Positions 1 to 56,478 of a stretch of 64,000 bases of DNA are shown here, piece by piece (positions within the stretch are counted from its first letter, which is position 1; each line of letters opens with the position of its first letter). The notes below the pieces were generated by a model that saw only the letters and a program-made list of their open reading frames with translations, had not been told where the DNA came from and ran no database searches. The stretch is from assembly GCF_003334305.1 (NCBI RefSeq), contig NZ_QOWS01000023.1; one strand, given 5' to 3'. Source of the DNA: Escherichia coli (GTDB taxonomy: Bacteria; Pseudomonadota; Gammaproteobacteria; Enterobacterales; Enterobacteriaceae). The position numbers were made by a program, and so were the translations under genes.

Positions 1-2
1 AG

Positions 3-60
3 TGGTGGCGCATTATAGGGAGTTATTCCGGCCTGACAAGAGGAAATTTAAAATAATTTT
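3..60 (-). promoter_or_regulatory. rrnA: rRNA operon P1 promoter (UP element, -35 TTGTCA, 16-bp spacer, -10 TATAAT, GCGC discriminator); transcript leaves the window at position 1
   Basis: Reverse complement of 1-60 reads AAAATTATTTTAAATTTCCTCTTGTCAGGCCGGAATAACTCCCTATAATGCGCCACCACT, the classic rrn P1 architecture; hemG is followed by rrnA in K-12 (from memory). Confidence 0.7.
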
Positions 61-88
61 CTGACCGCGCATTTTTTATTCTTTGTGC

Positions 89-634
89 TTATTTCAGCGT
101 CGGTTTGTCGGTTAAATGGGCGATTTCTCGGGCGAAATTCGCCACCTGCTCCCAATCGGTATAGACAACTTCTTTGCGCGTATCCGTTTCACCGCCTGAC
201 ATCTTCATAATCAGCTTGATCATAAAACGGTCGTACCAGCGATAACGTGGGTAACGCAGCGCCCCGGCAATGACCGCGCAGCGATCGGGACGCCATTGCG
301 AGTTCATCAGAAACTTCCGCGCGTAGCTGTTGGTCTGTGGAGTACGCTTCTCCGGTTTGCGCGCCACCAGGTTTACGGAATAAAAGGCGCTCGGCATCGA
401 ATTCAGTCGCGTCGCATGTTTTTTGACAAATTCCTGGAACGCAGAGTGGTAGTGACCATAGCGAATAGAAGCACCAATGACCACACGGTCATAATTTTCC
501 CATTGTGGTTCTTCAATGCGGTGCACATTGGCGACATCCGTCTGGATCCCCAGTTCTTTCAGTTCCGAAGCCAGGTAGGAGGCAATCTCGCGCGTTTGTC
601 CGTCCCTTGTTGAGAAAAGAATTAATGTTTTCAC
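89..634 (-). CDS. hemG: Protoporphyrinogen IX dehydrogenase, flavodoxin-like (181 aa)
   Basis: Full-length ORF recognised as HemG; 11 bp downstream of trkH as in the trkH-hemG operon. Confidence 0.93.
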
Positions 635-645
635 GTATTACTCCA

Positions 646-2097
646 TCATTCACGCCAGAAAGTCGGGGTAAAGAGCACCAGCAATGTAAAGACCTCGAGA
701 CGACCAAACAGCATGTTGGCAATCAGGATCCATTTAGCCACCGGGTTCATACTGGTAAAGTTATCAGCAACCACGCCAAGCCCTGGCCCCAGGTTATTCA
801 ATGTCGCAACAACTGAGGCAAAGGCAGAAAAGTCATCCACGCCCGTGGCGATAATCGCCAGCATACTGACAATAAACACCAATGCATAGGCGGAGAAAAA
901 TCCCCAAACGGCTTCGAGGATACGTTCCGGCAGTGCGCGATTCCCCAGCTTAATGCTATAGACGGCGTTCGGATGCACCAGTCGTTTCAGCTCACGGTTC
1001 CCCTGCTTAAACAGCAGCAGGATGCGGATCACTTTCAGGCCACCGCCCGTTGACCCGGCACAACCGCCGATAAAAGCCGAACATAAAAGCAGTACCGGCA
1101 AAAAGAGCGGCCAGCGGGCAATGCTGTCAGTCGTAAACCCGGCGGTTGTCGCCATCGACACCACCTGGAAAAACGCCTGGTTAATTGTCATCAGCGCCGA
1201 ACTGTAGACATTATGAAACCACAGTACGAGGGTACAAATAACCACCAGCGTAAACTGTACGCCGATAAACATGCGAAATTCCGGATCGCGCCAATAAACC
1301 TTCAGACTACGCCCACTTAACAGTGAAAAGTGCAGACCGTAGTTACAGCCGGAGATCAGCAGGAAGATAGCAATGATAGTGTTAATAGTCGGGCTATCGA
1401 AATAACCGATACTGGCATCATGTGTCGAGAAGCCGCCAATAGCGATAGTCGCAAAGCTATGGCCGATGGCATCAAAGGCATCCATTCCGGCAAACCACAA
1501 CGCCAGCGCACAGGCGACGGTCAGCAAGACATAAATCAACCACAGGGTTTTCGCCGTTTCCGCAATTCGCGGGCGCATTTTGTTATCTTTCAGCGGGCCG
1601 GGCATTTCTGCGCGATAGAGCTGCATCCCACCCACGCCGAGGATAGGCAGTATCGCAACCGCTAACACGATGATCCCCATCCCGCCAAACCATTGCAGCA
1701 TCTGGCGATAAAAGAGGATGGCGTGAGGGAGCGAATCCAGCCCCACCAGCGTAGTGGCCCCGGTGGTGGTCAGGCCAGAGAAAGATTCAAAAAACGCATC
1801 GGTAATCGTGAGGTTCGGGCTTTCCGAGAAGATAAAAGGGAGCGCACCGACGCTACCCAGCACGGTCCAGAACAGCACCACTATCAGAAACCCCTCACGG
1901 GATTTAAGTTCGCCTTTCTCTTTGCGGTTCGGCCACCACAGCATAGAGCCAATGGCGAGGGCGACAAAAAAGGTCTGGGTAAAAGCGCGGCCCGCTCCAT
2001 CCCGGTAGATGAGTGCTACCAGCCCAGGGATAATCATGGTCCCTGAAAATAAGATGACCAGTAGTCCAACGATTCGGGTAATGGCGCGAAAATGCAT
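646..2097 (-). CDS. trkH: Potassium uptake protein TrkH (483 aa)
   Basis: Full-length polytopic membrane ORF recognised as TrkH. Confidence 0.95.
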   Translation of the reverse strand: MHFRAITRIVGLLVILFSGTMIIPGLVALIYRDGAGRAFTQTFFVALAIGSMLWWPNRKEKGELKSREGFLIVVLFWTVLGSVGALPFIFSESPNLTITDAFFESFSGLTTTGATTLVGLDSLPHAILFYRQMLQWFGGMGIIVLAVAILPILGVGGMQLYRAEMPGPLKDNKMRPRIAETAKTLWLIYVLLTVACALALWFAGMDAFDAIGHSFATIAIGGFSTHDASIGYFDSPTINTIIAIFLLISGCNYGLHFSLLSGRSLKVYWRDPEFRMFIGVQFTLVVICTLVLWFHNVYSSALMTINQAFFQVVSMATTAGFTTDSIARWPLFLPVLLLCSAFIGGCAGSTGGGLKVIRILLLFKQGNRELKRLVHPNAVYSIKLGNRALPERILEAVWGFFSAYALVFIVSMLAIIATGVDDFSAFASVVATLNNLGPGLGVVADNFTSMNPVAKWILIANMLFGRLEVFTLLVLFTPTFWRE

Positions 2098-2135: not shown

Positions 2136-2753
2136 TTATTCTTCAATCGCTAACAATTGCAATGAACCACGGCTAAAATCCGCCAGCTTTGCGGAAAATT
2201 CAGCCACTTTCGCCGCCGGAAGCGCCACCCGCAGCAGAACGAATGCCTGATAATCACTGTTGATAATTTTGCCGTCACACTGCCCCAGCAACGCTTCAAT
2301 GCCGGTTAACTGATGATATTCACATTGCAAAGTATATTCGGTTAATGGCGTCTTGCGTTGGGTCGTTAGCTGGCGCAGCGCCTGATTCACGCCGCCGCCA
2401 TACGCTTTCACTAACCCACCGGTGCCAAGCAATATGCCGCCGTAGTAGCGCACTACCACAGCGGTAATTTCCCCGACGCCGCTGCCCATTAGCTGGGCGA
2501 GCATCGGTTTACCTGCCGTTCCCGCCGGCTCCCCGTCGTCAGAGAAACCCAGCTGTTGAGAATCATCCGGCGCACCCGCCACCCACGCCACGCAATGGTG
2601 GCGGGCATCGGGGTGTTCTGCCCGCACCGATTCAACAAACGCTTTCGCCGCCTCAACGCCATCGGTATGCGCCAACATCGTTATGAAGCGGCTCTTTTTG
2701 ATCTCTTCAACGACCGTGACCGGTGCCGCAGGAATTAACCAGCTTTCCATCAC
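2136..2753 (-). CDS. yigZ: IMPACT-family protein YigZ
   Basis: 205-aa ORF, 4-bp overlap with pepQ; conserved synteny. Confidence 0.85.
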
Positions 2754-4081
2754 GCCAGTTTCAGATCCCGGGTCATGTTTTCCACGTTGTTTTCGTGGAT
2801 CACCACGTTGTCTTCGATACGAATGCCGCCGAACGGTTTCAGTGCTTCAATTTTCTGCCAGTTGAAGTGCTTGCTGAACTGCCCTTCACGCCACGGTGCC
2901 AGCAGCGATTCAATGAAGTAGATACCCGGTTCGATGGTTAACACCATGCCCGGCTGGAGAATACGGGTGCAGCGCAGGTACGGATATTTTGCCGGTGCCG
3001 CGAGGTGCGTACCGCTATCATCCTGCATAAAACCGGCTACGTCATGCACCTGCAGGCCCAGCGGATGGCCAATACCGTGCGGCATAAACGGTCCGGTGAG
3101 ATCGTTTTCGACCATCGCTTCTTCACTCATATCGGTGATGATTTGATGTTTACGCAGCAGTTTGGCGATGCGCTGATGGAACTGGATGTGGTAATCCACA
3201 TAGCTGACGCCTGCTTTCATGGTAGCGATCAGCGCCAGTTGTTCATCATTTACGTCTTTCACCAGCTGTGCGTAGTCGTTGTCACTTTTTGCCGACCAGG
3301 TACGGGTCAGGTCAGCCGCATAGCCGTTATATTCGGCCCCGGCATCCAGCAGGAAGCTGCGCATCTCTTCCGGTGCCTGGTGGTCCAGTTTGGTGTAATG
3401 CAACACCGCAGCGTGTTCGTTGAGCGCCACAATGTTGCTGTAAGGTACGTCGGTATCACGATGACCGGTCGCGGTCAGATAGGCAATGTTGATATCGAAC
3501 TCGCTCATGCCAGAACGGAACGCTTCTTCTGCCGCGCGATGACCGTTGACCGCCATTTTCTGCGCTTCACGCATACAGGCCAGTTCGTACTCGGTTTTGA
3601 AGGAGCGGTAGTAATGCAGGTAGTCGATCACCCCTTTCGGGTTGATATTGCTGGCCTCAATACCCAGTTGCAGCGCACGTTCCGGCACCGGACCGATATA
3701 ACCGATATTCCCGCGCGCAGCAGGCAGCAGGCTACCAATGCCATCGGCTTTCGGCAGCGCGATCACTTCCACGTCTTCAGTCCAGAAAGAGGTCGGCAGC
3801 GGTTCGACGTTGTGCCAGTAATCAACCGGCAGATAGAACCACAGTTTCGGCTTGTTCACGCCATCCACCAGCAGCCAGCAGTTTGGCACCTGAGTTACCG
3901 GCACCCACGCTTTGAATTGCGGGTTCACTTTAAACGGATAGGGATGATCGTCGAGAAAAACGTTGAACAGTTCGCCGGAGTGAATAAGTAACGCATCCAG
4001 CTTGAAGCGCGCCAGCGCATCGCGAGTCCGTTCCTGTAAGGTAGCTATATGATTTTTATAGAGTGAGGCCAGTGATTCCAT
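2750..4081 (-). CDS. pepQ: Xaa-Pro dipeptidase (prolidase), 443 aa
   Basis: Full-length ORF recognised as PepQ (M24 peptidase). Confidence 0.93.
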
Positions 4082-13186: not shown

Positions 13187-15429
<2,243 letters not shown>

Positions 15430-15442
15430 TTCCGGTCTCCTG

Positions 15443-16198
15443 TCAGAACTTATAACCACGATGCAGCGCCACAACCCCCGCCGTCAGATTGTAGTAGTCG
15501 ACACTTTCGAATCCGGCATCCTGCATCATGGCTTTCAGGGTATCCTGATCGGGATGCATACGGATGGATTCTGCCAGATAACGGTAGCTGTCGGCGTCGT
15601 TCGCGACCAGTGAGCCAATACGCGGCAGCACATGGAAGGAGTATGCATCATAGGCTTTGCTCAGCGGCTCGATAATTGGCTTCGAGAACTCAAGCACCAG
15701 CAGGCGGCCGCCGGGTTTCAGCACGCGATACATTGAACGCAGTGCTTTATCTTTGTCGGTGACGTTACGCAGACCAAACGAAATGGTGATGCAATCAAAG
15801 GTGTTATCCGGGAACGGCAGCGCCTCAGCGTTCGCCTGAACATACTCAACGTTGCCAATCACACCGATATTACGCAGCTTCTCGCGTCCCATTTTGAGCA
15901 TGGATTCATTGATATCAGCAAGGACCACTTTGCCAGTTTCTCCGACCAGGCGGGAGAATTTCGCTGTCAGGTCGCCGGTGCCACCAGCCAGATCCAGCAC
16001 GGTCTGCCCACGGCGTACGCCGCTGCAATCAATCGTGAATCGCTTCCACAAACGATGAATACCAAATGACATCAAATCATTCATGACATCGTATTTTGAT
16101 GCCACGGAATGGAAAACGTGGGCGACCATATCCGCTTTTTGTTCCTTCGCGACGGTCTGAAAACCAAAGTGCGTCGTTTCTTGTGACTTATCCACCAT
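15443..16198 (-). CDS. ubiE: Ubiquinone/menaquinone C-methyltransferase, 251 aa
   Basis: SAM-methyltransferase motif [10 protein letters not shown]; full-length. Confidence 0.95.
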
Positions 16199-53783: not shown

Positions 53784-53990
53784 AAAAAAACGCCTGCTCT
53801 TATTACGGAGCAGGCGTTAAAACAGGTCTGTATGACAACAAGTGGGTGCTTCACTCAACGTTGTGTCCATGGTGTCTGATGAGGCATAAGCGACATCTGT
53901 CAGTGGACGATAAGCACCGTAAACGGCTCTGCGTCATTCCGGAGTTTATGAGGCACTAAGGCGAACATAAGAGATGGAATGAGCATCTAC
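53784..53990 (-). ncRNA. glmZ: GlmZ small regulatory RNA (~207 nt)
   Basis: Lies in the hemY-aslA intergenic region where glmZ is located in K-12; minus strand begins GTAGATGCTCATTCCATCTC and ends with a GC-rich hairpin plus U7; an extended -10 (TGgCATAAT) precedes the 5' end. Confidence 0.8.
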
Positions 53991-56041: not shown

Positions 56042-56118
56042 TGGTCGGCGAGAGAGGATTCGAACCTCCGACCCACTGGTCCCAAACCAGTTGCGCTACC
56101 AAGCTGCGCTACTCGCCG
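56042..56118 (-). tRNA. proM: tRNA-Pro (anticodon UGG)
   Basis: Reverse complement gives CGGCGAGTAGCGCAGCTTGGTAGCGCAACTGGTTTGGGACCAGTGGGTCGGAGGTTCGAATCCTCTCTCGCCGACCA. Confidence 0.93.
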
Positions 56119-56160
56119 AAATACTGCTTTTTGAATTTTTAGTTCAATTCTTTAAAGTCG

Positions 56161-56247
56161 TGGTGCGAGGGGGGGGACTTGAACCCCCACGTCCGTAAGG
56201 ACACTAACACCTGAAGCTAGCGCGTCTACCAATTCCGCCACCTTCGC
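56161..56247 (-). tRNA. leuT: tRNA-Leu (anticodon CAG), 87 nt with long variable arm
   Basis: Reverse complement gives GCGAAGGTGGCGGAATTGGTAGACGCGCTAGCTTCAGGTGTTAGTG...CCCCCCCTCGCACCA. Confidence 0.93.
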
Positions 56248-56267
56248 ATTGTCACAACTTCTAATAA

Positions 56268-56344
56268 TGGGGTGGCTAATGGGATTCGAACCCACGACAA
56301 CTGGAATCACAATCCAGGGCTCTACCAACTGAGCTATAGCCACC
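56268..56344 (-). tRNA. hisR: tRNA-His (anticodon GUG)
   Basis: Reverse complement gives GGTGGCTATAGCTCAGTTGGTAGAGCCCTGGATTGTGATTCCAGTTGTCGTGGGTTCGAATCCCATTAGCCACCCCA with the extra 5' G. Confidence 0.93.
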
Positions 56345-56401
56345 ACTACAAATCTTGTTACGCGGTATTACTACCACCGCAGCTCAAGCGCCGGGACTAA
56401 A

Positions 56402-56478
<77 letters not shown>

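Follow-up and report, generated by a model that had tools for sequence, protein, structure and literature searches.

The first 63 bases of the analysed DNA, read on the minus strand, are almost certainly the P1 promoter of the E. coli rrnA operon, with probable Fis sites that extend upstream into the hemG gene. The window is the whole stretch that was analysed, 64,000 nucleotides of an Escherichia coli contig (NZ_QOWS01000023.1, assembly GCF_003334305.1); coordinates count from its first letter, and promoter positions are relative to the P1 transcription start (+1). The rrnA P1 promoter is already known and belongs to textbook biology, and few bacterial promoters have been studied as thoroughly as the rrn P1 promoters. 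Of the findings, only the comparative evidence that the tail of hemG is constrained as promoter DNA would be mildly new.

Anatomy of the P1 promoter

A consensus scan gave, at window 39..12 (minus strand), a TTGTCA and TATAAT pair separated by 16 bp that agrees with the consensus at 11 of 12 positions. It is the best promoter-like match in the first 2.2 kb and points out of the window. When a looser gapped pattern for the P1 site was used, one match was found in the whole window, with 0 expected from 100 shuffles. The register was set by the published non-template strand of rrnB P1, which starts at -60 and whose 61st base is the A at window 3. In this register the promoter covers 63 bases (-60 to +3), and the cut of the window at +3 leaves three transcribed bases. 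A preliminary description, made from the letters alone, had placed an rrn P1 promoter with its UP element in the first 60 bp, on the reverse strand and firing outward. Its place at the window start, its type and its direction stand, given the exact identity to the P1 promoters of rrnA, rrnB and rrnC, and its length has to be corrected to 63 bases. The following elements were assigned:

3..3, minus strand: transcription start site +1 of rrnA P1, an A; register from the published rrnB P1 strand, probable start in this strain
4..11, minus strand: discriminator GCGCCACC, G+C-rich, -8 to -1; read from the sequence, definition from PMC7822876
12..17, minus strand: -10 hexamer TATAAT, -14 to -9; promoter scan and coordinate mapping
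34..39, minus strand: -35 hexamer TTGTCA, -36 to -31, with a 16-bp spacer to the -10 hexamer; promoter scan and coordinate mapping
43..63, minus strand: UP element CAGAAAATTATTTTAAATTTC, -60 to -40, 86% A+T; identical to the UP element of rrnB P1

The UP element is the binding site for the alpha subunits' C-terminal domains, and the discriminator destabilises the open complex and confers on it sensitivity to ppGpp/DksA and the initiating NTP. The boundaries used here, -60 to -40 for the UP element and -8 to -1 for the discriminator with its contacts at G-8, C-7 and G-6, are those of PMC7822876, and the UP element is defined in the same way in bioRxiv 2020.02.05.936344. At rrnB P1 transcription is initiated with ATP, nine bases past the -10 element (PMC7822876). 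The window has the corresponding features of an rrn P1: near-consensus sigma-70 hexamers with a suboptimal 16-bp spacer, an A/T-rich UP element at -60 to -40, and a G+C-rich GCGCCACC followed by a purine start, the A nine bases after the -10 hexamer, as read in the sequence. In vitro, open complexes of rrnA P1 form with ATP and CTP and are sensitive to DksA (PMC4446441), and the A(+1) and C(+2) of the window agree with this reported requirement for ATP and CTP.

Promoter-like consensus matches are common in this DNA, as six were found in the first 2.2 kb with 2.2 expected, and on that ground the site might be read as a chance sigma-70-like sequence without special function. We regard this as having practically no probability. 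An exact match over 63 nt to a biochemically and structurally characterised promoter cannot, judged by its length, have arisen by chance. The site is moreover present in all 5426 E. coli genomes, and the P1 core is found beside hemG across the Enterobacterales. At the sequence level, the chance reading is already refuted by identity and conservation.

The hemG flank identifies the operon as rrnA

The window was compared with the upstream regions of the seven 16S genes of K-12. As reverse complement, window 63..1 matches the K-12 rrnA, rrnB and rrnC P1 promoters at every base (63/63); the rrnG P1 promoter has its core in common with the window, and rrnD, rrnE and rrnH differ. The non-template strand with which rrnB P1 was studied by cryo-EM begins with the same 63 nt (PMC7822876). 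The P1 core alone does not, therefore, separate rrnA, rrnB and rrnC. The hemG gene lies directly upstream, and because this flank is unique and defines the locus, the operon is assigned to rrnA. Of the features specific to rrnA, hemG was found in the window at 89..634, and mobB and the spacer tRNAs were found in genomes that are identical to it or nearly so.

The closest known system is K-12 rrnA P1 itself, the promoter of rrsA-ileT-alaT-rrlA-rrfA, which occupies the same locus with trkH-hemG upstream. Alignment with it, as the preliminary description had proposed, gave full identity over window 63..1 and a single SNP in 200 bases, at window 85 (-82), where a C is found here and a T in K-12. 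This SNP lies between the hemG stop and Fis-type site I, outside the critical positions of the predicted sites. There is no functional difference from K-12 rrnA P1; the window runs opposite to the K-12 numbering and is cut at +3. The rrnB P1 promoter, the reference in the Gourse laboratory's work and in the cryo-EM structures, is identical to the window from -70 to +3 and beyond, and its Fis site I is centred at -71, as is the one predicted here. Upstream of -70, in contrast, the sequences are unrelated, with the murI side in rrnB and the hemG side in rrnA.

Many complete E. coli chromosomes, at least 12, are 100% identical to the first 700 bases of the window. One of these, E2865, was used to stand in for the window's own flank (100% identity over the 700 bases compared). 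In E2865 and in K-12, a distance of 119 bp separates P1 from the downstream P2 (TTGACT-16-TATTAT). The 5' end of the 16S gene is reached 290 bp past window position 1, and after this gene come tRNA-Ile, tRNA-Ala, 23S, 5S and then mobB. Outside the window, E2865 thus has the remaining features of an rrn P1, a P2 about 120 bp downstream and then the 16S gene. This bears out the statement of the preliminary description that an rRNA operon lies just outside the window.

The stretch at the hemG/P1 junction was found in 5426 of the 5426 complete E. coli genomes of the collection. We then searched for contiguity with a query that spans the hemG 3' end, P1, P2 and the 5' part of 16S and had to be covered to at least 80% in one place; 5370 of the 5426 genomes (99%) have it. 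A flank without an rRNA operon, which the preliminary description had named as the observation that would speak against it, is not what 99% of the complete genomes have.

The window ends at +3, and this genome might consequently have no intact rrnA behind P1, through a rearrangement, insertion or deletion at the edge, or might carry an rrnA that is recombinant with another rrn operon. Such events have precedents, since rrn operons recombine, as in the rrnD-rrnE inversion of W3110 (PMC5179076). In addition, 56 of the 5426 complete genomes are without contiguity of at least 80% over hemG-3'/P1/P2/16S-5', and the P1 core, being identical in rrnA, rrnB and rrnC, cannot alone name the operon. Against this stand the contiguous arrangement in 99% of complete genomes, the unique hemG flank that defines the locus, and the at least 12 genomes with 100% identity over 700 bases, of which the one examined, E2865, has a normal rrnA. 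We consider a broken or recombinant operon very improbable, and an intact rrnA is the preferred reading.

The 56 genomes (about 1%), for example NZ_CP168269.1 (strain IH5), do have the hemG/P1 junction, with contiguity into 16S below 80%. In about 1% of strains, then, the rrnA leader may have undergone an insertion or rearrangement.

The hemG gene overlaps the upstream activating region

The gene run at the start of the window, taken from the ORF list, lies entirely on the minus strand:

2750..4081, minus strand: pepQ, ORF
2136..2753, minus strand: yigZ, ORF
646..2097, minus strand: trkH, ORF; annotated as trkH in 100%-identical genomes
89..634, minus strand: hemG, menaquinone-dependent protoporphyrinogen IX dehydrogenase, 181 codons; ORF and RefSeq annotation of 100%-identical genomes

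The preliminary description had located the hemG stop region from position 89 onward, in agreement with the ORF at 89..634 and its TAA stop codon at window 91..89, which is -88 to -86 relative to the P1 start. The gap between the end of hemG and the UP element is 25 bp, and the last approximately 12 codons of hemG together with its stop overlap the upstream activating region of P1. An antisense ORF of 41 aa at 85..210 on the plus strand was discarded as spurious; it sits within hemG on the opposite strand.

No intrinsic terminator was predicted on either strand between the hemG stop and the 16S gene (window 64..91 and L001 7112..7490). The fold of window 170..1, covering hemG to P1, was no better than that of shuffled sequence (z = 0.12). 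Since no terminator-like site was found and the fold was unremarkable, the hemG transcripts, possibly trkH-hemG transcripts, are probably either ended by Rho or read into the rrnA P1 region. An Rfam search of window 1..150 gave no match, as expected for a promoter.

Fis-type sites upstream of the UP element

Each rrn P1 promoter has, upstream of its UP element, between three and five Fis sites, and an rrnA promoter fragment was shifted by Fis in gels, in agreement with earlier reports (PMC4696680). In Salmonella, rrsA is a ChIP-validated Fis-bound region (PMC3662779). Because at least three sites are needed and only one 15-bp site fits in the spacer between hemG and the UP element, the other Fis sites must overlap hemG. 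Fis sites at all seven rrn P1 promoters, with footprints at rrnA among them, are said to have been mapped by Hirvonen et al. in 2001.

As working consensus for Fis we used GnnnRnnWnnYnnnC, a 15-bp core with G(-7), C(+7), an A/T-rich centre and R/Y at -3/+3; the strict critical bases are G, A, W, T and C (5 positions). The relaxed pattern has a background of 0.9 matches per 100 bp across the window, so that consensus matches alone mean little. The following sites are proposed:

67..81, minus strand: Fis-type site I GAATAAAAAATGCGC, centre -71; 5 of 5 strict critical positions, in the 25-bp spacer between hemG and the UP element; predicted binding
87..101, minus strand: Fis-type site II candidate GACGCTGAAATAAGC, centre -91; spans the hemG stop codon (91..89); predicted binding
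107..121, minus strand: Fis-type site III candidate GCCCATTTAACCGAC, centre -111; within hemG codons 172-176; predicted binding

All three sites have A/T-rich centres. In E. coli the -91 site has both flank bases and four of the five critical positions, its -3 position failing even the relaxed pattern, and the -111 site has four of five strict and five of five relaxed positions. The sequence thus has, like other rrn P1 promoters, a Fis-type site I near -71 and further predicted sites upstream. The preliminary description had suggested that Fis-site territory would extend into the hemG stop region; the conserved Fis-type candidates at -71, -91 and -111 support this on comparative sequence grounds.

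Two further consensus matches within hemG were rejected as conserved sites. At -123 the flank bases vary across species, and at -136 they are kept in only 22 of 29 species around a G+C-rich centre.

Fis sites mapped at other promoters allow a comparison of spacing. At rrnB P1 they are centred at -71, -102 and -143, and site I was footprinted (PMC2885671). The mapped rrnB sites II and III (-102 and -143) lie in non-coding DNA, whereas the rrnA candidates at -91 and -111 overlap the hemG stop and coding sequence. At tyrT the sites are at -71, -91 and -122, so sites I and II match the rrnA candidates at -71 and -91, 20-21 bp apart and on the same DNA face. This -71/-91 spacing goes with cooperative Fis binding at tyrT (PMC2885671). 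The tyrT promoter differs in being a tRNA (stable-RNA) promoter rather than an rRNA promoter, and in its third site at -122 compared to the -111 candidate in rrnA.

Conservation of the upstream region across species

Species-representative genomes were scanned once; the pattern asked only for the -10/discriminator of P1, TTG in the -35 hexamer and GAYTGG (the 'DW' of HemG). The loci were therefore selected for the P1 core, and no constraint was placed on -64 to -118. The scan returned 120 loci, 75 of them with a full HemG homologue (46-99% identity), and in all 75 the hemG stop is located 82-120 bp upstream of +1. These hemG-linked loci include Escherichia, Citrobacter, Enterobacter, Pantoea, Erwinia, Serratia, Yersinia and Photorhabdus, and further Dickeya, Pectobacterium, Edwardsiella, Morganella, Arsenophonus, Hafnia, Budvicia and Aeromonas. 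As the 75 loci reach from Escherichia to Aeromonas, the hemG-rrn junction is old. Mean A+T at -60 to -40 is 0.79 across the 75 hemG-linked loci of other species. At the -71 site, G(-7) is conserved in 96% and C(+7) in 94% of these loci, and the site is equally conserved at rrn P1 promoters away from hemG. The Fis pattern at -111 is matched in 38 of the 75.

For a comparison at single-base resolution, 29 Enterobacteriaceae-like loci were aligned without gaps from +1 and 83 centres from -145 to -63 were tested. Only three of the 83 centres, -71, -91 and -111, combine an A/T-rich centre with both flank bases in at least 28 of the 29 species, a count that does not stand for independent events as the species are related. 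The pair of flank bases is kept in 29/29 loci at -71, in 29/29 at -91 and in 28/29 at -111, and the centre of the -91 site scores 4.48 of 5 for A/T richness over the 29 loci. The only other centres above 60% are -136 (22/29) and -135 (20/29), both with G+C-rich centres. The six flank bases (-118, -104, -98, -84, -78 and -64) are 96-100% conserved, their neighbours mostly 37-60%.

Two of these bases are third codon positions of hemG. Codon 176 ends in the C at -104, which shows 97% conservation over seven different amino acids, and codon 178 ends in the G at -98, which shows 100% conservation over eight. They rank as the top two of 20 amino-acid-variable columns, for which the median is 0.60. 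In addition Leu174, which forms the A/T centre of the -111 site, is encoded by the rare TTA in 23 of 28 species, compared to 10% TTA among the other Leu codons of the same genes. Conserved third bases together with TTA are the signature that constraint on DNA rather than on protein would be expected to leave. In a sliding window along hemG, synonymous-site conservation is 0.51 overall and 0.70, 0.58 and 0.53 in the last three 10-codon bins. The rise at the 3' end is modest, and the signal lies in a few specific bases and not in the whole region.

The pattern of G and C at -91 and -111 could have another origin than Fis. It could reflect a different nucleoid protein (H-NS or Lrp), curvature or wrapping of the DNA on RNA polymerase, or a constraint on the 3' end of the hemG mRNA, with Fis bound only at -71 and possibly further upstream. 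H-NS binds the rrnA promoter region (PMC4696680), and upstream DNA near -100 has been proposed to wrap RNA polymerase (PMC7822876). Moreover, Fis sites predicted from a consensus are unreliable and frequently give no footprint (PMC2885671), the E. coli -91 site has only four of five critical positions, and the mapped rrnB sites are at -102 and -143 and not at -91 and -111. However, the conserved bases are exactly the G-7 and C+7 read by Fis, 14 bp apart and around A/T-rich centres. They form three repeats in register, each 20 bp from the next, and among the centres from -145 to -63 no further one shows this pattern in at least 28 of 29 species. The -71/-91 spacing is that of Fis sites I and II of tyrT (PMC2885671), and the literature calls for at least three Fis sites at rrnA, of which one at most is intergenic. 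We consider the non-Fis origin unlikely and prefer Fis sites at all three centres.

In the more distant genera whose HemG is less than 65% identical (among them Serratia, Yersinia, Photorhabdus and Pantoea), the hemG stop is located further upstream, mostly at -94 to -120. Here G(-7) of the -91 position is found in 84% of loci and C(+7) in 69%, and the -91 site appears to be retained independently of an overlap with the stop codon. In the 45 rrn P1 loci that are not hemG-linked, matches to the Fis consensus occur, besides -71, at -134 (30/45) and -130 (23/45). This suggests that the layout of conserved upstream sites at non-hemG rrn P1 loci may be different from that of the hemG-linked operon.

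Proposed mechanism and implications

Following the roles that the literature gives to the UP element, the discriminator and Fis, sigma-70 RNA polymerase would bind the near-consensus -35 and -10 hexamers while two alpha C-terminal domains would bind the UP element. From the A at window 3, transcription would proceed leftwards beyond the window edge, first across P2 and the leader and then into 16S-tRNAIle-tRNAAla-23S-5S. A short-lived open complex is expected from the combination of a 16-bp spacer, a GC-rich discriminator and a start nine bases past the -10 hexamer. With such a complex, output would track the initiating ATP and ppGpp/DksA, which would result in growth-rate and stringent control. 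Because of the sequence identity with the rrnB and rrnA P1 promoters, we infer that this P1 is under growth-rate, stringent (ppGpp/DksA) and iNTP control.

Fis dimers would most likely bind at the three sites 20 bp apart (-71, -91 and -111) and activate through contact with the alpha C-terminal domain. With site II over the stop and site III in the last codons, the end of hemG would be both coding sequence and promoter activating region. Fis occupancy of the -91 and -111 sites, as well as activity of the promoter in this strain, is what we infer from the sequence.

We give about even chances to a broader proposal. According to it, selection at the level of DNA rather than of protein has shaped the tail and stop of hemG. 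These would hold the second and third Fis sites of rrnA P1, within an even -71/-91/-111 array conserved across the Enterobacteriaceae, and the array would keep constant the third position of codons 176 and 178 as well as the rare TTA of Leu174. Having no terminator, hemG would also be transcribed into the strongest promoter class of the cell. If true, this would be a clean natural case of a coding sequence doubling as a promoter activating region, and this double role of the hemG tail may not yet have been described explicitly. The activity of the rRNA promoter could then be affected by synonymous substitutions, or by engineered edits, in the last part of hemG. For annotation of the window, it is relevant that a complete rRNA operon (rrnA) begins just outside it and that the 3' end of hemG is probably also regulatory DNA.

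Other RNA features in the window

Elsewhere in the window, three further RNA features were recorded:

14824..15075, minus strand: 'Erse small RNA' (RF02757); Rfam, 319.5 bits, full length
53784..53990, minus strand: GlmZ (SraJ) small RNA; Rfam, 218 bits, full length
56042..56478, minus strand: cluster of four tRNAs, in transcription order Arg(CCG), His(GTG), Leu(CAG) and Pro(TGG)

The RF02757 match lies within the 3' part of the ubiJ ORF (14824..15474) and abuts ubiB; the match points to a known sRNA located inside a coding gene.
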